From the UHGV virus genome UHGV-0213541: 64,000 nucleotides of DNA, one strand, 5' to 3'. Position 1 is the stretch's first letter, and every line of letters begins with the position of its first letter. The notes beneath the pieces were generated by a model. The model saw only the letters and a program-made list of their open reading frames with translations. It searched no databases and had not been told where the DNA came from. Origin of the DNA: a virus. Positions 1 through 35,721 of the stretch are shown here, one piece after another. A program made the translations under genes and the position numbers.

Positions 1-12
1 ATTCCTCCTTAT

Positions 13-486
13 ATGCTAAATAGGATGTGTAAATATATGCCACAGTTTTTAATAGACATATGGAATAATACATTTATAGGATTTAGTTTATTCAGCGTCA
101 TATCGTGTATTGAATTTGTCTTAACCATCATTTCTCTCTATAAAATAGGCCGTGTTGATAAAAATATCGCCATTACAAAAGAAATTATGCGTGCGGAGCC
201 AGAAATACAACAAGCAATCAGCGCTATTAAAAAAACTCTAAAAAATGTAAAACTTAACAGTTCAATGCAGGAAGCAACTGTATATGTCAACAACATTTAT
301 CAGACTTTATGTTCAATTTCTGAAAGACTGGATGTTTTAAAAAAGACTTCAGAACACGAAAGTATTGATGAATTTCTCAAAAACTGGACACTGTTCTATA
401 CAAACCCTACTAATAGCGATTACACGGTTGAAAACTGTATCAGAGATTTAACAAAAATTCAGCATGACTTAGAGAGGTTGCTTTAA
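13..486 (+). CDS. Hypothetical protein with N-terminal TM segment and coiled coil; AT-rich cargo antisense to the tape-measure intron
   Basis: 157-aa ORF, hydrophobic stretch FIGFSLFSVISCIEFVLTIISL, AT-rich relative to the structural genes. Confidence 0.6.
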   Translation: MLNRMCKYMPQFLIDIWNNTFIGFSLFSVISCIEFVLTIISLYKIGRVDKNIAITKEIMRAEPEIQQAISAIKKTLKNVKLNSSMQEATVYVNNIYQTLCSISERLDVLKKTSEHESIDEFLKNWTLFYTNPTNSDYTVENCIRDLTKIQHDLERLL

Positions 487-487
487 T

Positions 488-940
488 ATGTTTTTTGAAC
501 AAGCTGCTCATTTTTTAACAAGCATCACCGTATATACGCATCGCAGTAAATGTCGCTGGTATCGCTACCCTGCCTCATACTTATATGACAATCCCGTTGC
601 AAGAATGTTTATAAAAACAAACGAAGCAGAACTTGGGAAGTTAGACATTACGAATTCTTATTTTGTACAGCAAGACTGTGGTTTTGTATACTTCTTTTCA
701 TTTGGCAAAAAAAACAGGATGCTTTGTATACAGCAAGCAATAAATCTTCCACTCATAGAAGTTGCTCAGGAACAAAATTCTGACATAAAAATACTTGAAA
801 CAGAAATAGTTCGATATATAGACGAAGAAGAAGGTCAGCCATGGGGCACTTATAATTTCTTTAGTCATATATGTCCCAATGAACCAGAACCAACAGATGA
901 AGAAATTGAAGAATTAGGTGTTTCTCCGTTTGAAAAGTAA
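488..940 (+). CDS. Hypothetical protein, coupled to the upstream ORF
   Basis: 150-aa ORF starting 1 nt after the previous stop; acidic C-terminus. Confidence 0.6.
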   Translation: MFFEQAAHFLTSITVYTHRSKCRWYRYPASYLYDNPVARMFIKTNEAELGKLDITNSYFVQQDCGFVYFFSFGKKNRMLCIQQAINLPLIEVAQEQNSDIKILETEIVRYIDEEEGQPWGTYNFFSHICPNEPEPTDEEIEELGVSPFEK

Positions 941-1073
941 GTGCCCATGTGGGTCTACAAATACCAAGAAGATATTCGGCATGGCTAAAGCGGCGTCCGT
1001 GGGGCTGTTTAGTATCTTCTCCAAAAAGGTTAAGCCCCAATTCCACTGCAACTCCTGCGGCTATGAATGGTAA
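939..1073 (+). pseudogene. Remnant 3' end of a zinc-ribbon protein gene (KCPCGSTN...GLFSIFSKKVKPQFHCNSCGYEW*)
   Basis: Manual translation; no start codon; first CxxC has lost a residue (CPC); a second degenerate copy lies at 1369-1404. Confidence 0.6.
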
Positions 1074-1091
1074 GATTTGTGAGGTATCTCT

Positions 1092-1340
1092 ATGTCTCAT
1101 CAAGAACAGCACTACGCTGGTATCCATTACCACAATGTCTTAGATGTCGGTTTCTCGTGGAAAGACCACCCGCCGCGTCCATTTAATTCGTACTTCCCCG
1201 GTGCGATAACGCGAACCGAATTCAAGAACTGCCCCGTGTGCGACACAAAAATGCTGACCTATATGCATTATCCAATCGAGAAGCGTATACGTGCTGTGTG
1301 GCAATGCAAGGTGTGTAACAGACTGTTTGTATTCATCTGA
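1092..1340 (+). CDS. Small zinc-ribbon protein
   Basis: GAGGT SD; CPVC...CKVC motifs. Confidence 0.6.
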   Translation: MSHQEQHYAGIHYHNVLDVGFSWKDHPPRPFNSYFPGAITRTEFKNCPVCDTKMLTYMHYPIEKRIRAVWQCKVCNRLFVFI

Positions 1341-1412
1341 GATGTATTTTTTGCAGAAGGTCAAACATCAATTCCACTGTAACTACTGCGGGCATGAATA
1401 GTAATAAAATAG

Positions 1413-1452
1413 AAAAAGCCGCCATGCGTTAAAACATAGCGACCTTTTGTTT
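1413..1452 (-). terminator. Intrinsic terminator between convergent cargo genes, probably bidirectional
   Basis: - strand AAAAGGTCGCTATG-loop-CATGGCGGCTTTTT; T-runs on both strands. Confidence 0.6.
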
Positions 1453-2013
1453 TTAGTTATCATCATTATCTGACGGTATAAGATAATCTTTTACTTCTGA
1501 ATTCGTAGGATAACCAACAATAATACTTTTAATATCAGATATATGAAAAACTATAATATGTGATGGCTGTTTATCTACTACCTCATTTCTATCATCATAT
1601 TCTGTAAAATTACTTATAGCAAAAAGTCCTTCGTCTTTGTCCTGACTTTTCCTGCAGTAAACTCCAGAATAATAATGCGTGTCTGAATTTAACTGTACAA
1701 TTATGTATGTGCCGCTTTCAGTATCTAATAAGTCATCCCAAATTGAACGTGCAGGTGAATAGGCGAATCCGTCTTTTAACGCAGTTTTTACAGATACATT
1801 TTTCAATATGAAATGTATTACGACTGCTATAAAAATAGCCACAGCGACGTTTATAATTGGATTGCTTCCGAAATAAGCAAGTAAATAACTAAAAGCCAAA
1901 GAAAATACTATATAATGTTCAATCAACTTTATTTCTTGTAAGGAACAGAAACACCAAATACCAATAAAGCCCGGTATAAAATAAAGTAAGACCATTGGTA
2001 TTGCTGCAACCAT
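1453..2013 (-). CDS. Membrane protein (DUF6338-like: three TM helices plus soluble beta domain)
   Basis: IPGFIG...SIWDD...YSGVY pattern; SD GAGGTG lies just upstream of an in-frame ACG at 2037. Confidence 0.6.
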   Translation of the reverse strand: MVAAIPMVLLYFIPGFIGIWCFCSLQEIKLIEHYIVFSLAFSYLLAYFGSNPIINVAVAIFIAVVIHFILKNVSVKTALKDGFAYSPARSIWDDLLDTESGTYIIVQLNSDTHYYSGVYCRKSQDKDEGLFAISNFTEYDDRNEVVDKQPSHIIVFHISDIKSIIVGYPTNSEVKDYLIPSDNDDN

Positions 2014-2046
2014 ATCGTTAATTTTAGTTATATCCGTAAAATCACC

Positions 2047-2205
2047 TCATTTATCATTGCCAACATTTCCTTTTTTCATAGTATCTACTGTTTTAACGTC
2101 TTTGTTTTTAGGCGCAACAGTATAATTACGAAAATTTCCAAAATGTTCTGTTGCTGTATCGATGTGAATTTCTTTATTACTATCGTTTTTATTATTCTGA
2201 GCCAT
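2047..2205 (-). CDS. Small hydrophilic protein (52 aa)
   Basis: AAGGAG SD before ATG 2205; extended -10 TGATATAAT upstream; the longer 2466 ORF overlaps the ribozyme core. Confidence 0.55.
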   Translation of the reverse strand: MAQNNKNDSNKEIHIDTATEHFGNFRNYTVAPKNKDVKTVDTMKKGNVGNDK

Positions 2206-2572
2206 ATTGTTAGCAACTCCTTTATTTATAATAAAAGAAATTATATCATATAGATCAAAATAATGTTGCACAAATTTCAATGACAATATATGTGCATTTT
2301 TTATAACCTTCTCGGGGCTTTCCCACGATGTTCTGACTGTCTTTCCTCCCATCCGGCCTAAACCGTAGAATAGGGCTACCCATACAGTCGATGAACCAGA
2401 ATCCCAGAGGTCACACCCTCCATCTGTGCAGTAAGCTGCACGGGTCTCCGGCTGCTGATTAAGCATTGTTTGTGCGACTTAGCACTGCCGCCGCATAAGC
2501 TGACATAAAATATTAAAGCCCGCCGTCATTATGACAGCGGGTAGTTTTTTCGCCGTAAGTGCCGCCCTACGG

Positions 2573-3001
2573 TTATTCTTTTGTAAAATCGAGGTTGCGC
2601 TTGGATGGATACTCCATAGTCAATACCATGTGACCGCTTGCGCTGGTAATGGCAAAATCACATTTACTTAGGATATCCATACCGATAATAACATCATAGA
2701 AAGCGTCCCCTTTATTGTAGGAACCGGCCTCTATGTCCCCACAAGGAATTGTATTGTCTATCATGATATTAACTTCGTAACAATCAACCTCTTGCTTTAC
2801 TCCACCTACTACACTGTAAGGAACTTTTCCAAGTGACGGTAAAGACATTTTTTCTGCAAGTTCTTCAGAGATGCAAGTGTGGGAACAACCAGTGTCTATT
2901 ATACCCATAACAAGCGCACGAGTGAAATTAGCATACACATTAACCAATACACCAATCGTAAGAGAACCTTCTGGAATATCGTTAAATGTGTACACAGCCA
3001 T
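2573..3001 (-). CDS. Retropepsin-like (clan AA) aspartyl protease
   Basis: GIIDTGCSHTCI catalytic motif and C-terminal IIGMDIL motif. Confidence 0.85.
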   Translation of the reverse strand: MAVYTFNDIPEGSLTIGVLVNVYANFTRALVMGIIDTGCSHTCISEELAEKMSLPSLGKVPYSVVGGVKQEVDCYEVNIMIDNTIPCGDIEAGSYNKGDAFYDVIIGMDILSKCDFAITSASGHMVLTMEYPSKRNLDFTKE

Positions 3002-3003
3002 TT

Positions 3004-3279
3004 TTATTTCTCCTTTATTATAACGCCAAAATCTGCTCTTTTAATACCAAAATACTTACATGGATCAATGATATTTGTTTGGCAGTACAAAGCACCAGGA
3101 GCATCACTATTAGGCATATCGCTAAAGGACGAACCAACTGCAACAACTCTGCAATCAACAATCAAAAGTAATTTTCCATTGTACTTCTGATTTAGTTCAT
3201 CTCCATGCTTTTCAGACCAACGAATATTTTTCCGCACAAGTATTTTGTTGTGGATTTTTTTAATCATTTCCTTAATCAT
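3004..3279 (-). CDS. DUF5678-like protein, the usual upstream partner of retropepsin-like proteases
   Basis: W...H.DEL.QKYNGKLLLIVDCRVVAVG pattern; GGAGGTG SD before ATG 3279. Confidence 0.65.
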   Translation of the reverse strand: MIKEMIKKIHNKILVRKNIRWSEKHGDELNQKYNGKLLLIVDCRVVAVGSSFSDMPNSDAPGALYCQTNIIDPCKYFGIKRADFGVIIKEK

Positions 3280-3552
3280 ACCACACCTCCACCTACAAAT
3301 CAATCACCCGCCCTGTTTTTGGCACCGCACAGGGCAAGCGGCCTTTAATATCTTATGTCAACTTACGCAACTACAGCTTTTCTCTCAGCATATCGCATCC
3401 GTGTTGTTGTTTCCGCCTTTCGGCACCGTCACAATGGGTTACTCCACTGTTTTTGTCACACGGCTCTTAGCCTTTCCCAGCAATTTGGGTATTTTGTACA
3501 CCAAGGTTGCATCCTACGCAGCTATTCCCGTTGCGTAAAAGGGCATATTTTT

Positions 3553-6500
3553 ACCGGCCTTGGTATTTGTCATAGATGCAATCGCAGACAACGCTGTTGC
3601 AATCGTCGGCATTGCATCTCCTGCTTTAACTAATCCGTCCGCGAAATCAAGTGCGGCGGTTCCTAAATCGATAAAACCTTTAACAAGTCCACTATCAAGC
3701 ACATCAGACGAGAAGGACTGGAAGGTGGCTTGGAATCTGGACAGCTTGCCCTGCACCGAATCGAGGAACTTGGAGTTTTCGACCTCGGCAGAGTTGCTGT
3801 CAGTTGCAAGCGCATTCATAACCTCGTCAAGCTCTTTGTAGTTCTCGATCAAAGCAGCAACAGCGTTGGCATTTCTCTTGCCACCCATGAGTTCGAGAGC
3901 TGCGCTGTGTTCCTGATCCGACATTTCTGACCATGCTGCGCCCATTTCTTTAATGATCTCGAACGTAGACTTATAATTTCCCTGTTTATCAAGAATATCG
4001 ACTTTCTGGTGAGACAGCGCATATAGTGAAGCTCTCAGTTTAGAAGTCGTTTCGGCCATGCCTTCAGCACTTTCACCGGTTGCTTCCAACTCGGTTTTCG
4101 TTGCACGAAGATACATAGACACTGTTTTTAGTGTTGTACCCACAGTTTCTGGATTTTGAACAACACGGTTCATGGCCGTAGCCAGCGCAATGCTCTCTTC
4201 CAGTGTATTGTTAGCACTCTTTAATGCGGCTCCACTCCGATTGATAGCCTCCCCGACCCCATCCGTAGAAATGGCAAATTTGTTACCAGCGGTATTATAC
4301 TCATTAACAATTCGCATAACATCGTCAGCTTCTACGCCAAATGCCTGCATAGAAGAAATAACCATGGAGCTTGCGTCGTCTATGCTACTGATACCATCGC
4401 CGACATTTTTCAGAAGCAAAGCGGCATCGGAAACTTTTTCAGCATCATCAATATTAAAGCCAAGACGTGCAAAATCTGCTGTACTATTGATAACGTTTGT
4501 CAAGCTAGTGCCAAGTGTTTTTGCACGAGTTCCAGCATCCTCCATAAATTGAGAATATCTGGCGCTCGTCTCATCCGTAACCTTCTTCAGCTCGGTCATG
4601 GCGCTGTCAATGTCCACAACATTCTGATACACCTGACGCAGTCCCTGCTGGAACGCATTGATCACCTGATTTGCCAGCTGGCTCTTGATGTTGACCTCAA
4701 ACAGTTTCTTGAGCTTAACAGCTAAAGTGTCCGTTTCCAGCCCAGCATCCTGAATCTCTTTTTTCAGAGTAGACCATGCCTTGGACATTTCATTGGCGTT
4801 GTCTTTTGTAAACTCTTTAGACTCAATCTTTGGCTTCCACGAATTAAAGAAGTCCGTAAACTTAGCATAAGCTTCCACATTCTTGGAGATAGCACTATTA
4901 TTATTAAAATAACGCTCTGCAGTATACATTGTATTCTGCATGCTCTTTCCCCAAGAGTTCTCGTTCAGCTTTGCCTGTTGTTCATCGTTGAACTCCTTAG
5001 CACTCTGCTTTGCCTGATTGATCCTGCGGCTTACCAATGCCATAAACTCGGCAAGATTCTTAGCTGCTGTACCGGATTCCGACAATTCATTAGCAAACTG
5101 CTGGAACACGCCAGTCAGCTGTGTATAATCTCCACTGTCAATGACATTTTTCAACGCATCACGGATACCAACATACCCAGTAGAACTATCACCGTTCATC
5201 AGGCGCATAAAGGCCGAATCATCAAAGCCTTTATCGCGTGCGTTACCAAGATTGTTTTTATAAGCATTCATCGCCTTATCAATCTCGGTGATTCTGGAGT
5301 TCACATTATTGTATTGGTTTCGTAAAGAATCATCCGCCTTATTCTTGGCACTGTCCATCTTTGATTCCAATTTGTTCATAGCTGTGGTCAACTGTACTAT
5401 AACTGTATAGTATTCTTTTGCTACATTCACATTATTGGGATCAAACATTGCCTGCCCGCGCAGTTCTCTGGCTTTTCCTAACAGATCTTCAATAGACTTT
5501 GCAATATCTTGCATTTCTGCATTTGGCTGTATGTTTTTAGAAAATTCATCATATCGATTCAACAGGTCGTTTGCTGCTTTTCGCTTTTCTGTCGCATTGT
5601 TAATGTTTTCTTGCGCGTTTTCAAACTTCTCTGCTGCATACGATGCGTCAACAAACTCTTTTCTTACATATGTAATAATATCGGCTAGACTGTTCAAACC
5701 ATATCCAGCAGCTGTTGCCTTTGTACGCATATCCGTGAACAACTTGCCAGACAAAAATTCTTCGACATCACGCTCAGAACTAATATTGCTTATAGCAGCA
5801 ATGACTTCCTGAATATTCGTGACAAAATCCTTGCTGCTTTGCAATCCTGCACCAATACCAGTATTGTTGTTAAATCCAGCAAGCAAGCTCTGTAACGAAC
5901 CAACAACTCGATCTTTATCTCCAAGCTGCGTTGCAAAGTCTTTTTGCAAACTATCACTTACAGAATACCCAGCCTTCTGTATTTTTGTTTCCAAAGCATC
6001 GACCGATTTTCCAAGCCTTTGGATTGCATTGTCGTATTCTTCAACAATAGCAACATTGCTGGAGTCAGCAATTACTTGTCCACGTAATTCGCGTGATTTT
6101 TCCAACAAATCAGATACAGAATTTGCAAGGGCTACAATTTCAGATTTTGCGGTGTTAGACGAAGCGTAACTATTGTATTTATCAAGTACATCGTTGGCCT
6201 TCTTTCTGGTTCCTGTTGCGCTTACCATTTTTTTATCAAAGGCAATAGATTCTTTTTGCGTACCAGTAACAGTCGCCACCCTGCGCGTAGCTGCCTTAGT
6301 AGGCTGACTGATCTTCCCAAGCTGCTCTGTGATTGCATCATTGATAACTTTTGCAAAGTCGGTCATGTTGACCTTGTCAGCAATACCCTGCAGCTTCAGC
6401 AAGCCTGCCATACTTGCCTGGATGCTATCAGCAGCAGCATTCAAAGAGTCAAAGACAGTGACAAGCTCGTTGAACGCATTGACAATCGTATCCTTATTAC

Positions 6501-9138
6501 CCTGTACCGTATCAGATTTAGCCGTAATAGCGTCAACTTTTGCTTGCAACGCGCTCGTGTCCTCAAGCACCGCGACAACCTGCTTCAGCACATATTCAAT
6601 CGAGGCTGCAAACTGCTGCGCTGCTTGGCTGACCTCCTTATTGACATCCTGCTGCGTCGGGATCTTGTTTTCTTCAACAGATTTTGTCTTGGAGGTCGTT
6701 TTCTTTTTGCCCTTATCGGTGCTCTTTTTGCCAGTTTCTATCTTAGCCTTGCTGGCATTCTCGACCTGATCAAGAGCCTTATCAAGAGTCTGTGCGCTTC
6801 CTGCTAACTGTGCGCCGGTAGCAGCCACACCCTGCAGCTTGGCTACGATCTGACCCAGTGTTTCATCAGTGGTATCCAGTGCCGCAATAATCTGCTCAGC
6901 AGCAGCCTGCGCATCTTTTACATAGCTCTTTGCTCTGGTGACAGGGTTCGTTGTTTTTGCCTTGTTCTTTTGCGTGTCCTTGTTAGATTTATCGCCCTGA
7001 ACGATGGTTGTATCATTCAGAGTCTTACCAACAGCGCTAATGACTACAGCTTCCTCAGTGAAAAATTTCGTAAGACTGCTAATCGCATCTTTGTAAATAT
7101 CGACGCCTGTTTTCAGCCCATCAAGTGCGTCCTTATACTGTTGCAGTGTGCCGCCGACATCTTTGAGCTTGGCATTATCCGATGTTAGTTTATTTACAAA
7201 GTTGGTAATCGTAGTCAACAGTGCTTTCAGCTTGGAGACTTCCATCTTGCTCATGGCATTGGCAAGTTCCTCTGCGTCGGATTTTGCGCTGTTTGTATTC
7301 GATTGAACACCCTGTTGCGCGGCCTCAAGCTGCTTGACAGACGACATGGCCTCTTTCACCATATCATCAAGGCGCGTTTTCTCATTTTTCGCGGTTGTAA
7401 TAATCTCTTCTTCGACTTTAAGAGTACCACGTTTAGCCAATGTCAAACTGGTTTGCCGCTCGATGATCTGATTCATTAAAGTGAGCAGTGCATTGCCAGC
7501 TTCAATGTCCTGCGTAGTCAACTGACCAAAACTGATCTTTTCAAAGTTCTGCGAAGTCATATCACTGATGTCGGAAATGACCTGATCGATGCCAATAGAT
7601 ACATTTTTGATGTTGTCGATGAACTTAGAATAAATATCAGCATTCATCTTCTTGCTGACATTACCATCAATATCGTTCATCGTCTCATCAAGTTTCTGCA
7701 TGACGTTCAGAACCGATTCAACGCGCTGACGTGTAGAATCGTCCAGCTTACTCGTGTCTATACCGGAGAACATAGACTTGATGCTTTTAGAAAATTCTTC
7801 GATCTTGCTCTTGTACGTACTCATGTACATCAAGAATCCGGTATCATAATCCGTCTCAGTTTTTGCCGGTGTAGAAATAGCTGTCTTTAAACCAGACTGA
7901 ATCTCAGTGGCGATGCTGATGACACTATCCTTCATCTTTTCAGCGTCGTCTTCCACTTCTTTCTGAGTCTGTTTCAGCGTACCCTTCATAATACCGCTGG
8001 CAACTTCGCCAATTTGTTTGGCACTGCCCTCTACAGTTTCGCGGGCAATCTCACCGCCACGTTCGTACATGGTTGTCTGTATATTAGACAACACCTTGTC
8101 AAACTCAGCGCCGATATCCTTGGATCCACTGGTGAGAACAGTCATGATCAGGTTAAAGTCGTCAGAAATATTCTTAGCGTAGATCTTCAGCGCGTCTTCA
8201 TCGTCGGTCTGGTTTACAAGTTCTACATTGGACCCAATGTCGCTATACAACTTTTGGATCGTATCTTTGATTAGCCTGCCGCCAATTTCATACTCTTTAG
8301 AAATGTCAGAAAAGACGTTCTTGTCTCCAAACTTGCTTGCGTACATTTTACGCAGAAAATCTGCAGCCTGATCGCTCTTTGCACCTTTACCGTTGTAATT
8401 TTCAAAAACATCAGCACCAATATCCCTGTCATACTGCTCGTAAAGGTCTTTCATCATATCTACAATGACCTGAGCATCACTGTCTTTGATCTTTTTAATG
8501 GTATTTTTGATTTCAGCACCGGATTTTGTTGCAGCAGAAGTAATTGCATTCGTAATATTAGAAAATGCTTCTTTTACCTGCGACTCGTCAAACGCCTGTG
8601 TGTAATCTCCTGCGCTTAAAGTGTTTAGAATATCTTTCTGAACCTCGGCAACAACGGCCTTATTATTTGCAGCGGCCTTTTTCAGTGCAGACAGATTTTT
8701 CTCTTGATCTCGTAGCGTGTTGTATATAGGGTCTTCACGTTGGGCAGTCTGCATGTTTTTATTCATCATGCTAAAGGTTCTGCTCAACGCCAGAGTCTGT
8801 GTCATGACACTATTGTACTTATCCAGCGATTTAGTGTAGTTTTCCTGTGTGATATTGCCGGTTTTCAGCATGGTCATCACATCTGCCATAGCACCCTGAT
8901 ACAGATCCATCGTGCCAATGACAGTCTTGATAGACCCCATAATGTCAGCAGCATATTTATTCACGCCGCCTGCAATGGCGTTATAAATCCGCTTGGTCTG
9001 CTTATCAATGTTCGTAATATCAAACTGCGGGTCAACCTTGATTTTCAGTTTTTCACTCTGCTCAAGCGCCCGAATTTTTGTACTGACCTCTGATGTGTCA
9101 GGCATTACCTTCAGTTTGATTCTTAAATCCTCCGCCAT
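3553..9138 (-). CDS. Phage tail tape measure protein, exon 1 (1862 codons; the unspliced ORF runs 12 codons into the intron and stops at 3514)
   Basis: Long helical protein; TP901-type core DSAMTELKKVTDET...STADFARLG...VGTTLKTVSMYLR; last gene of the tail block. Confidence 0.9.
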
Positions 9139-20108: not shown

Positions 20109-23002
20109 ATGTACCCCTCCTTCTGGCAGGTGCCCTAAAGTTTATTTCGATTTTCTTTGTCTTAGCGTAATTCTTTGCCATGCTGCGCTCAACCTGCATT
20201 GCTATGTAGTAGTTGTAACTAACCGAGCTGTAACGGTCCTTGCGTGCGCCGGGCTTTTCATGTACACGGATCAAATTGTTTGTCGCCTCATAATCAAGGT
20301 TGACCAACTCATTGACCATCAGCCCTGTATTGATAAACGGCAGCTGTAAAGCAGTGCGCTCTGTCGGCGTCATCTTGTCATAGCCCTTGAACTGCGCACG
20401 CAGCAGCTCCTCGCAATCGTACTCGGAATCAAGGAACCGGATACGTCCCTGCTGAATACCGCTTCGCAGTGCAATCGTCACATCATTGTTGAACTGTGCG
20501 CTGCCCATAATGGCCCAAATTACCTTGGGCGCGGTCTTATCTGGGCATCTGTCCTGGAAATCAGCGTTATTGCAGCAGTTCAGCGGTGGGAATATCTCTC
20601 CGCTCTCCGGGTCATAACACTCGTGCATCAACAGGTCCATGATCGGGGCACCAAGGCCCTTGGCGTCAATACCGATGTAGTCGCAGTCAAACCATTTAAA
20701 ATAACGGCGCAGTTTTAACACAAGGTCCTGCGTGATGATACCTTCGCAGTTTTCCGTATATACCATGTTACTGGTATATCGTCCACTGCTGCTCGGGGTC
20801 ATATTGTTCAAGAAAATGCTCGTTGCGTCGTTATCGCTATGCTTAGAACTCATCAAAGCAATATCGACCGTCAAAATACGCTTCTCCCCTGGCTTTTTCT
20901 TGGGCGGTTCAATAGATCTGCCTGCCAAAATAGTGCCAGGCGCATAAAATGCCTGCTTCAGATTGCGCACCTTGTTTATATCTTCAAAGCTGAACAGCCC
21001 GCCATCGGTCACGCCGATAAACATGGCTTCCATCTCCATACGGAACTTAATGTCGCTGAACGAAGATTCGGACATCTCATCCTCAACCTGCTCCAGTGAC
21101 AACATACCCTCTTTTACAGGCATCTGATACGGGAACCGGAAGCAGAAATATTTTTTGTCTGTGGCGTACATATTATAGAAATAGTCCTGGCACAACTGCC
21201 ACGACCAGTGAGATTGAAACCATGCTGAACTCAAGTACATTTCAATAGGTCGTTCCAGCAAATGTTTGTACTGCTTCTTCCGTAAATAACCAGGCTGGCG
21301 TGCAACCGTCAGGAAACGACGCAGGACCAGATCAATGACATCCTTGTCGATCATACGGAACTCGTCGCAGACCAGAATCGTAGCACGATGTCCGCGGGAG
21401 GTATCGCTCGCTGTAACAACTTCGATAAAGCTGCCATTACGGAATGTAATCTCAGCCTTACTTTGATTGATGACAACATCTTTTATCTCACTGCGCAATA
21501 GCGGCGACATTGGCATAAGTTCCTTGGTTATCTTTTCAAGAACCTGCGCACCCTGACTTCGAACCTTTGCGCAAACTACTATTTCGCTGTGCGGATAAAG
21601 AATCGCCTTATAAACGATGAATACTGCTGTCAGGAAAGTCTTTCCTAGCACATTGTTATCCTACCGGCTTTTTATCCGGCAGTTCTTATGGTTTCCCATA
21701 AGGTCAGCATACATTTTCATCCATGTAGGATGTCGGACACTCGTGGGCAGATTATATTCTATCTATGATAGGGTCACTGCCTATGCGTTACAATACTGCA
21801 CTTTATTAAAGGTACAGTTATCTCGGTATCAGCATTATCAGCCTTTACCGATTTTGCCCGATGCACTCAAGCAGATTTCTCCGCCTGTGGGCCTAAATTA
21901 GAAATATAGATATTGTATTTACGTAATAATTTTGGTGCATTATCATCTGCATACATAAGTTCACATAATCTTCTCATGTCATTTGTTTTAGTAACAACAA
22001 CACGGTTTTTCATATCGTTTACCTTATATACACTACTGCTGACACCATAAAGCTCTAGTAATTTCTTTTGACAAAATAGCGCAAATTCGTGATTTGGCGT
22101 TGTTATATTGATTTGAACTCTATTTTTCCCTTTTGCTGTATAGTTATAAATACATCCATTTCCATCAAAATATCCTCTATAGAAATCAATGAATAAGTCA
22201 TCGCTAACAATAGGGTGCTCATTTTTGTATGTTTTATTTTGAACAACACCATTCGACACTAGGTCCTCTGCCATTGCTCTGCTGTACATACGAAGCACAG
22301 ATGAATGAGTGTTACAATAACTTTGAATTATAAAAACGTGTTCTTTGTCAATATCTTTTATCTGAAAAACGCCGCCGAATACATTATTTAAGCGCTCCAG
22401 CATATATTTATCGTTACGTTGTAATTCTATACTTATCTCGTAATTTGATCTGTTTTTGTCGCAAATTACCCAGCCATCAGCGTAAAGCAATCCAAGCCAA
22501 TATGCTTTTTCTTTGGTATCAATATCTTTAAAATATCTATTATCAAATACTCTTTTTTTACGCATACCGAGTCTCAATGCCCTAGCCTGTATTTGCTTGG
22601 CTCCATAGCCTAATATCTCGCCAATCTCGCCGCTTGTTTTTGTCATATAGTTATCCAGTATGTATAAATCTTCTTCTTTTGTAAACATTGCTGGACGACC
22701 AGTAGGCTTAACTTTACTCATACAATATCTCTCCTTATTTTTAAAATAATAAAGAGAGGGCGGGTGTCTATCCCGCAAAATCTCTAATTTTGTTGACCAC
22801 GACTTCCAATGAAGCAGAAATTCGTCGCCAGATTCATCATAAAAAGCAAGACGACCTGGAACGGATGCAGCTCTAAGTTTAAATAGTCCTTGCAAAATCG
22901 GTGCGGGTTTGCCCTGTAAAAAGAGCACCACTTCGCCACCGCGTTCATGATTTGCGTAGCCTTGTCATTTGCAACTTCTTCTGCAGTTCTTTTCTGAGCC
23001 AT
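20098..23002 (-). CDS. terL: Terminase large subunit, spliced: exon 1 23002-22796 + exon 2 21648-20098 (585 aa)
   Basis: Joining restores Walker A GSRG|LGKT; Walker B ILVCDEF; nuclease domain LTVDIA...KDRYSS. Confidence 0.9.
21649..22795 (-). ncRNA. Group I intron in the terL Walker A motif (1147 nt)
   Basis: Exon ends in U (GGU), intron ends in G; P3 UCGGGCA 21855-21861 / UGUCCGA 21733-21739; P4 UCGGU/ACCGA; P7 GCAUA/UAUGC in GUAACGCAUAG 21781-21791 and AAAAUGUAUGC 21707-21717. Confidence 0.88.
21867..22721 (-). CDS. Intron-encoded LAGLIDADG homing endonuclease with N-terminal HTH/Myb-like domain (284 aa)
   Basis: AYWLGLLYADG and FYRGYFDGNGCI motifs; own SD AAGGAG before ATG 22721; AT-rich. 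Confidence 0.88.
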   Translation of the reverse strand: MSKVKPTGRPAMFTKEEDLYILDNYMTKTSGEIGEILGYGAKQIQARALRLGMRKKRVFDNRYFKDIDTKEKAYWLGLLYADGWVICDKNRSNYEISIELQRNDKYMLERLNNVFGGVFQIKDIDKEHVFIIQSYCNTHSSVLRMYSRAMAEDLVSNGVVQNKTYKNEHPIVSDDLFIDFYRGYFDGNGCIYNYTAKGKNRVQINITTPNHEFALFCQKKLLELYGVSSSVYKVNDMKNRVVVTKTNDMRRLCELMYADDNAPKLLRKYNIYISNLGPQAEKSA

Positions 23003-34911: not shown

Positions 34912-35721
34912 TTATTCGCCAACAAAAATGTACTGATTAACATAATCCCGATTTTCACCTTTCAAGATTGGCATTTCAGTATCAAGTACCCACTGCCCAT
35001 CCTTATTGATACAGGCTGTACCACGTTTGCATGTGGTAGGATAATTATTCCAGTTGACGTCAAATTGCCACATAAGCATGTCCTGAATGTCGTTGCATTT
35101 CTTCCCCTCCAGCTGTTTGTATGAGAAATATGCTTGCCCCACCATCTGGATGGAATTGCGTGTCGCATCGAGCTGACGCCAATAGATAAGGTTACAAACT
35201 TCTTCCTTTGGGATATTGAAGCAGCGGGCGTCGAACATAGCGCCTTTATTGGCGGCAGTCGTCATCTTTGCAACATACTCGTTATGAGCAATTTGTACAT
35301 CTATAGATTGTGGCGTAAGACTACTTTTCCATGCAGAATCTTCGTTCCAGATAGACATTCTGAAGAATTTATTGAACGCCATCGTTGCCATACTGGCGGA
35401 CACACTACATAGCTTCTGAACTTCGTAATCGAACCAAGCATCCGTGGTAAGTGTCTGGTAGTCAATCAGGATCAGTGTGATTTCATCGGACTGTGTATAA
35501 CCAAACACGCAGCCTTGGATATTCTTGCACAGGTACATCATGGTTTCCTGCATAGATTTCATCAGGATCATGTCAAAAGGCTTCTGAAAGCCACGAGTAA
35601 AGGTGTGGAAGCTTTTGCCGTCAATTCTCAGTGCAACCGGCGTTCGGCGCATTAACTTTGTTTTAGGAACTGCCTCGTAATACTCTTTCATACGGGTGCC
35701 CATGGAATCATTAAAGCTCAT
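34912..35721 (-). CDS. thg1: tRNA(His) guanylyltransferase Thg1-like 3'-5' polymerase
   Basis: RIDGKSFHTFT, YTQSDEITL, FDARCF and WRQLDATRNSI motifs. Confidence 0.92.
   Translation of the reverse strand: MSFNDSMGTRMKEYYEAVPKTKLMRRTPVALRIDGKSFHTFTRGFQKPFDMILMKSMQETMMYLCKNIQGCVFGYTQSDEITLILIDYQTLTTDAWFDYEVQKLCSVSASMATMAFNKFFRMSIWNEDSAWKSSLTPQSIDVQIAHNEYVAKMTTAANKGAMFDARCFNIPKEEVCNLIYWRQLDATRNSIQMVGQAYFSYKQLEGKKCNDIQDMLMWQFDVNWNNYPTTCKRGTACINKDGQWVLDTEMPILKGENRDYVNQYIFVGE

Follow-up and report, generated by a model that had tools for sequence, protein, structure and literature searches.

A stem-closed slot for exchangeable gene cassettes in the P5 extension of a group I-type intron in a phage tape measure gene

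How can a predicted ribozyme that interrupts the tape measure gene of a phage hold two further genes inside one of its peripheral helices and still fold? The question was raised by a 64,000-nucleotide stretch of viral DNA (here called the window), in which a long RNA stem had been predicted to loop a DUF5678-like/aspartyl protease gene pair out of a ribozyme, so that an independently expressed operon could sit in P5. The window is a large phage or prophage with terminase, portal, and integrase genes, and BLAST against annotated phages returned no match. The phage also encodes a tRNA-His guanylyltransferase-like protein (34912-35721, minus strand; phrog_4717, E 2e-82) and, directly upstream of the terminase large subunit gene, a free-standing endonuclease (21867-22931, minus strand; phrog_4645). 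In two earlier papers, group I introns are described as tolerating large inserts in terminal loops, including that of P5, and as carrying homing endonuclease genes (HEGs) in P1, P2, P5, P6, P8, or P9, with I-TevI in L6 of the T4 td intron as an example (PMC3073962, PMC4227781).

The intron and its relatives

On the minus strand, the open reading frame of a tape measure protein (exon 1, 3553..9138; PF10145, E 8e-23; 3' end ...GCC GGT) is interrupted at 3553 by sequence with the P, Q, R, and S elements of group I introns and a canonical P7. The 5' splice site is predicted between 3553 and 3552 from the U-G geometry of P1 and the in-frame exon 2 of relatives. It is followed by the P1 loop with the internal guide sequence (3544..3552), the predicted P10 partner of exon 2, which pairs with the start of exon 2 in relatives. 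The core continues on the same strand with the P element, comprising the 5' strand of P3, J3/4, and the 5' strand of P4 (3473..3491, kept in 65/65 introns), and then with the 3' strand of P5 and the Q element (2460-2450), the R element (2397-2385), the 3' strand of P3 (2382-2377), the S element with the canonical G-site pairing of P7 (2344-2333), and the P9 hairpin (2327-2313). Read from the sequence, the intron thus has P, Q, R, and S together with P3, P4, P6, and the G-binding site of P7, as expected for group I. The 5' strand of P7 ends at 2385 and the 3' strand of P3 starts at 2382; this gap of only 2 nt leaves no P7.1/P7.2 hairpins, an IA2-class feature, and the window intron therefore lacks what marks subgroup IA between P7 and P3. 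Rfam gave no group I match in the window, nor on an intron with an empty P5 slot (L057, perhaps without its 3' end), and only sub-threshold chance matches on a relative with other cargo (L167, see below); long insertions can defeat the Rfam group I model.

After P9, the window intron holds a second, multi-gene cargo region (1..2300), which runs off the window and matches the corresponding region of a relative (L001) at 86%; the 3' terminus of the intron and exon 2 lie beyond position 1. This region encodes a DUF6338-like membrane protein (1453-2013, minus strand), a 52-aa ORF, and plus-strand genes, including two small zinc-ribbon-like ORFs with a common 48-nt repeat (1026-1073 and 1357-1404). 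The segment AGGUUAUAA 3' of P9 (2309-2301, minus strand) has its complement, TATAACCT, near the intron 3' end in 42/43 relatives. TATAACCT lies about 45-55 nt before the 3' splice site (e.g., in L007) and is separated from AGGUUAUAA by 1.4-5.4 kb of cargo; the two are a candidate pairing. A further pairing on the minus strand connects the end of exon 1 (3564-3558) with the intron segment after P2 (3506-3500; ACCAAGG/CCUUGGU); other complementary versions of it occur in the L002 and L006 types, and it reads as an extended 5' exon guide beyond the short P1.

Relatives were collected with an exact 19-nt core pattern, which gave 64 viral loci and, with the window, a set of 65 introns that fall into two ribozyme lineages. 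P, Q, R, and S occur in this order in 65/65 loci, R being the search pattern. With ATTATATCACAC as the anchor, the 3' splice site was located in 43/65 loci; 11 had no candidate and a further 11 lacked an exon-2 ORF within reach. At 43/43 located sites, six of which belong to introns with P5 cargo, exon 2 is in phase 0, both exons are in frame in 41/43, and intron lengths are 1.9-5.8 kb. P10 pairs average 5.2 for the intron's own partner and 2.9 for swapped partners, a figure that is inflated because the 3' site was selected on best P10 pairing, whereas the phase is independent of that selection. The relatives are accordingly predicted to have the U-G pair in P1, the terminal G, P10, and the in-frame ligation of a group I intron. 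The anchor itself is conserved about 20-35 nt before the 3' splice site; on the opposite strand it can be read as an extended -10 box, which may drive the antisense cargo genes. At L253, L202, L179, and L236 there are group I-type introns that are more distant and whose P5 extension is related; L449 and L455 were rejected as introns, being chance matches to the pattern.

The long-range stem and the slot it closes

As originally predicted, two arms (3368-3338 and 2523-2493) bracket the DUF5678-like gene (ORF1, 3279-3004) and the protease gene (3001-2573), and their letters are exactly those first given. They form the top inverted repeat of 275 in positions 1-8000 of the window (31 nt, 87%). As an RNA duplex they score 31 on the minus strand vs. 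19 on the plus strand, and after dinucleotide shuffling of the 2-kb region (n = 200) the score averaged 13.6 (sd 1.3) and never exceeded 20; the duplex energy is -36.4 kcal/mol on the intron strand vs. -20.0 on the other. The length of 31 bp holds for the repeat in the window, but only about 26 bp are conserved. At the inner end, 6 positions are not kept in other allele types; these share sequence with a pseudoknot (5' side) and with a terminator-like hairpin (3' side). The 5' arm of the conserved stem (3344..3368, minus strand), with 8-9 variable outer nucleotides that show compensation and 17 nearly invariant inner ones, pairs with a 3' arm at 2493..2517. The minimum-energy fold contains the stem; it misses P4 and the GUCGCA helix both with and without the stem, and a 5-bp base helix alone depended on it (0.6 vs. 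0).

The stem indeed sits in P5, namely on a peripheral helix of the P5 extension of the intron. The first subdomain of this extension (3399..3463, minus strand) is closed by CCGUGU/ACACGG, with 6-7 of 7 pairs in 19/19 distinct variants, and adjoins the helix UGCGAU/GUCGCA (3397-3392 with 2478-2473); both are maintained in the two intron lineages with compensatory changes. Further inward lie a conserved junction, GCUGAGANAAAAGC (3389-3376), which is also present in the distant introns L253 and L202, and a native base helix (3377-3373 with 2488-2484), so that the long stem continues the base of a native hairpin. In 44/65 introns a short tetraloop hairpin occupies the position of the slot. Distant introns keep the junction with hairpins of other lengths, and in the four named above the hairpins at the slot position differ greatly in length. 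The pair GUGUGAC/GUCGCAC, which had been taken as a P5a-like helix outside the stem, is probably not native: all 7 pairs form in 10/19 distinct variants, all in the window's lineage, whereas in the other lineage no more than 4/7 remain; the competing helices are kept in both.

The arms were compared across 37 cargo-bearing loci, which correspond to 34 places (three loci are duplicated) and 22 distinct arm pairs. Metagenome cargo loci (23) had been chosen on the 3' arm sequence; of the 53 metagenome matches to the arm pattern, 11 outside introns and 2 without a P element were set aside. Over the 26 arm columns, seven G-U pair types and no A-C were found (p=0.008), with a single T-T mismatch. 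Among the 22 distinct arm pairs, 6/9 outer columns have changed on both sides, compared with 1/17 compensated inner columns (p=0.002), and these compensatory changes derive from just about three or four arm lineages. The pairing at the RNA level on the minus strand that had been read from the window is supported across relatives both by G-U pairs without A-C mismatches and by the compensatory changes. The near-invariance of the inner 17 bp is not explained by pairing alone. At 25 loci with deleted alleles, of which 10 are distinct, about 15 bp remain after loss of the cargo together with the larger part of the inner 5' arm, and these alleles add two further G-U types vs. one A-C.

Four states of the slot are found: empty, filled with DUF5678-like/protease alleles, filled with a TenpIN locus, or deleted with a residual stem. 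Counted over the 65 introns, 44 have it empty, 13 have the DUF5678-like/retropepsin pair in it, and 8 have lost the pair but kept about 15 bp; the record nearest to the window (G001) has a deleted allele. In run X1, a contig of what is probably DNA has 13 other letters between 3374 and 2488 and therefore represents an empty allele of the window's lineage; excision at the RNA level was considered for this joint and is ruled out by these foreign letters. In four relatives (L151, L165, L043, and L051), flanks that are 93-98% identical to those of the window surround cargo that is only 50-58% identical, which argues for exchange by recombination in the flanks. The cassette is present in both ribozyme lineages (100/100 split, L018), and its orientation is identical at all 34 cargo places.

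It had been suggested that homologous introns be checked for the same stem around different cargo, and such introns were found. In L167, the arms of L002 enclose a promoter, a pair of 40-nt repeats that lie 54 nt apart and are 88% alike, then a terminator-like hairpin and the gene of a TenpIN-family toxin (NF047358, 158.7 bits vs. a cut-off of 90). Judged by its sequence, this cargo has the arrangement of a TenpIN system, in which the toxin is preceded by a promoter, RNA repeats, and a terminator. TenpIN is seen in the slot with DNA context at 1/34 cargo places; proteins 98-99% identical to the L167 toxin occur in other assemblies as protein matches, the slot context coming from L167 alone.

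The DUF5678-like/protease pair also lies directly after P9 in 30/65 introns, distributed by slot state as 26/44 empty, 2/8 deleted, and 2/13 full, and at least one copy of the pair is present in 41/65. L018 and L038 each have the pair twice within one intron, in the P5 slot as well as after P9, and L018, L021, and L039 have a further lone DUF5678-like ORF downstream. Frameshifted protease alleles in the P5 slot (L158) and after P9 (L028 and L047) indicate that the cargo can decay.

Genes and signals inside the cassette

ORF1 (3004..3279, minus strand) encodes a 91-aa protein that is delimited by alignments to homologs and modeled with a pLDDT of 92. The ORF1 of the window has no Pfam match and is labeled DUF5678-like because homologs match PF18929 (4/12 aligned alleles at E <= 0.1; best score 26.1 bits vs. 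a cut-off of 23.2); its model gave no fold match, and no solved relative was found by sequence. ORF2 (2573..3001, minus strand) encodes a 142-aa retropepsin-like aspartic protease (PF13975, 30.2 vs. a cut-off of 28.2; PF13650, 27.7 vs. 24.3). Its alleles are 24-74% identical to the protease of the window, and the motifs D36 T37 G38 and G107 M108 D109 are invariant in 70/70; the D-T-G motif, the downstream G-x-D, and profile scores above cut-off place it among the retropepsin-like proteases of clan AA. The protease weakly matches the PADLOC candidate PDC-M08B (E 8e-6), and the PADLOC M08 models matched 0/12 ORF1 alleles. No description of PDC-M08 was found in the literature, and M08 is not named in the main text of 10.1101/2024.01.29.577857. 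A role of the protease in defence is supported only indirectly. Complex prediction for the protease with ORF1 scored 0.23, against a mark of 0.32, and speaks neither for nor against an interaction.

The head of the cassette, just inward of the 5' arm, can be folded into an H-type pseudoknot (3310..3342, minus strand; S1 3342-3338/3328-3324, S2 3335-3329/3316-3310) with an invariant GCCA in a loop. It is present in 19/20 distinct leaders and scores at least 10 in 18/20, compared with 1% of shuffles. In a MAFFT alignment of 21 leaders, 7/12 pairs change on both sides, with a covariation score of 0.371 that is reached by 0/500 shuffles and a pair count that is reached by 45/500. A scan of 2.8 Mb of collected loci with the motif gave four unrelated-looking matches away from the arm. 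At the other end of the cassette, a terminator-like hairpin (2519..2541, minus strand) has the inner 3' arm as its U-rich tail and adjoins the arm in most, though not all, allele types.

The sigma-A-type promoter TTGATT-17-TATGAT that had been predicted ahead of the pair is present (3275..3303, minus strand), and its boxes and 17-nt spacing are found in 24/24 distinct leaders. It overlaps the start of ORF1, whose Shine-Dalgarno sequence lies within the promoter spacer and whose ATG lies within the -10 box. A transcript from this internal promoter would lack the ribosome-binding site and start codon of ORF1, and the view of the pair as an independently expressed operon is corrected accordingly: judged by its position, the promoter would yield a message for the protease alone, and translation of ORF1 would depend on read-through RNA, either the late tape-measure transcript or the excised intron. 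In the pairs after P9 the promoter likewise lies on the ORF1 start, in some cases as TTGAAA-17-TATAAT inside the first codons, and such a promoter was seen at 0/15 non-intron loci inspected. In higBA the toxin comes first and the antitoxin has an internal promoter; by analogy, the promoter arrangement here recalls such toxin-first modules.

Readings of the stem and their significance

The stem, its strand bias, its compensation, its position on a native hairpin, and the four slot states are direct observations, and we consider it likely that the stem lengthens a peripheral helix, holds the cargo clear of the ribozyme, and is selected because the tail gene must splice. On this explanation, an RNA stem of about 26 bp would lengthen a peripheral hairpin of the predicted group I intron in the tape measure gene and close a swappable gene slot, likely looping out about 0.8 kb of cargo so that the ribozyme folds and splices. 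Cassettes would be exchanged by recombination between the conserved flanks, and the arms would be kept paired by selection on splicing of the essential tail gene. The cargo would be accessory, with a probable role in conflict or defence, and the phage thereby likely carries extra, possibly defensive genes inside an essential gene.

Other readings remain, mainly because of the invariant inner 17 bp. The arms might form a processing stalk for RNase III, a tentative idea that is compatible with the lengthened helix: the cargo RNA would be released, with the pseudoknot shielding its new 5' end, and a two-piece ribozyme would be held together by the outer pairs, like the intervening sequence (IVS) in 23S rRNA. 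A near-perfect 26-bp duplex would suit this idea, the invariant inner 17 bp suggests sequence-specific recognition, and the covarying pseudoknot adjoins the 5' arm on its inner side and is, across 2.8 Mb of loci, essentially absent elsewhere; ORF-bearing IVSs are described as excised by RNase III (PMC4990558). However, the TenpIN cassette has the same arms without such a pseudoknot, and deleted alleles persist despite the loss of most of the inner duplex. An unlikely alternative would make the stem a transcriptional device, with the 3' arm as the terminator U-tail of the cassette and the 5' arm, which is present only in read-through RNA, as a long-range antiterminator whose pairing lets the tape-measure transcript pass. 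This would account for the conserved U-rich inner arm, which is the tail of the hairpin at 2541-2519, and in the allele type of the window the 5' arm reaches into the 3' strand of that hairpin. Yet the tail, with 5 T in 8 positions, is weak; the types L025, L035, L152, L163, and L167 have the same arms but lack the hairpin or have it set back; and in the window the hairpin survives in the minimum-energy fold with the stem formed.

That the inner 17-mer is instead a DNA site, such as a transposon end, a recombinase or invertase site, or an operator, with RNA pairing as a by-product, we regard as improbable. The 17-mer is nearly invariant and starts with TG, as many IS ends do, and the cargo is exchanged. 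Against this, the abutting direct repeat is 0 nt for three candidate ends, and the 17-mer (<=2 mismatches) occurs solely at the intron in 5/5 phage records. Among 55 matches to the 17-mer, 0/23 outside introns carry cargo, and four non-intron matches with an opposite-strand near-match did not extend. No inverted cassette was seen, the orientation being the same at 34/34 cargo places, and no transposase lies between the arms; mismatches are of the G-U and not the A-C type, and the pairing continues into the native helix. The original prediction had named a DNA transposon end with target duplication as a finding that would overturn it; a transposon or MITE was rejected, as there is no target duplication, no other copy in the five phage records, and no transposase between the arms, and an invertible element was rejected on the single orientation at 34/34 places.

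The lengthened-helix reading can be set beside systems described in earlier papers. Introns with HEGs likewise have an ORF inserted at a peripheral helix tip, P5 included, and looped out from the catalytic core, but the cargo described here is a two-gene accessory cassette or a type III toxin-antitoxin locus and not a nuclease or mobility gene. It is, moreover, swapped between conserved flanks, closed by a stem of about 26 bp, and accompanied by a second, multi-kilobase cargo after P9 (PMC3073962, PMC4227781). The group I introns TMP-IVS1/2/3 in tape measure genes of Bacillus cereus-group prophages share the type of host gene, in-frame insertion, site-adapted P1/P10, and structure-keeping deletions; they are IA1/IA2 introns with HEGs or their remnants, whereas the present introns have no room for P7.1/P7.2, a large P5 extension, lengths of 1.9-5.8 kb, and non-HEG cargo (PMC2504315). 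In the mobile IStrons CdISt1 and BcISt1, IA2 introns whose 3' end carries an IS transposase, a group I ribozyme also renders foreign genes harmless to the host gene, but here the slot has no transposase and the host site is fixed (PMC4227781). ORF-bearing IVSs of rRNA similarly hold an ORF in a long stem at a helix tip of a structured RNA, whereas here the ORF is hosted by a ribozyme within an mRNA, and cutting by RNase III is a candidate process (PMC4990558). The L167 locus has the promoter, A-rich repeats, terminator-like hairpin, and toxin of TenpIN type III systems in the standard order (PMC12283969; NF047358) but lies inside a self-splicing-type intron; the word "intron" does not appear in the main text of PMC12283969. 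Stand-alone pairs of DUF5678 and retropepsin genes (PF18929; clan AA) have the same genes in the same order, and a DUF5678-like ORF is present in the locus at 103/160 protease loci; the intron-borne pairs differ in having the promoter on the ORF1 start, and the arms and the pseudoknot are confined to the P5 slot. A literature search that left most subscription journals uncovered found no paper on accessory or toxin-antitoxin cassettes in such an intron slot, and for DUF5678 it yielded one unrelated paper. The feature is real and conserved: within the P5 extension of this phage's group I-type intron, a stem closes a slot for swappable cassettes, and at least one of the cargoes is of a recognised defence type.

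Homing endonucleases are the inserts usually associated with group I loops; here, within an essential structural gene, a peripheral helix hosts swappable accessory systems, among them TenpIN, a toxin-antitoxin type recognised as anti-phage. Empty, full, and deleted alleles occur in nature and offer a ready comparison of how a ribozyme folds around kilobase inserts, and the slot might also take engineered cargo in spliced RNAs. The slot is common to TenpIN and the widespread DUF5678/retropepsin pair, which makes the pair a concrete candidate for defence. A more far-reaching combination is speculative and, taken as a whole, rather doubtful: the intron would be a carrier ribozyme for defence cassettes with a stem-closed P5 exchange slot, a timing switch, and an undescribed toxin-first DUF5678/retropepsin conflict system. 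The constitutive promoter would then make only the protease, and the DUF5678 partner would be made when the late tail gene is transcribed or the intron excised, with RNase III possibly freeing the cassette behind its protective pseudoknot. If this is true, the DUF5678/retropepsin pair would be interchangeable with TenpIN, and even a toxin that cuts RNA would be carried within a transcript whose splicing the phage needs for its tail.
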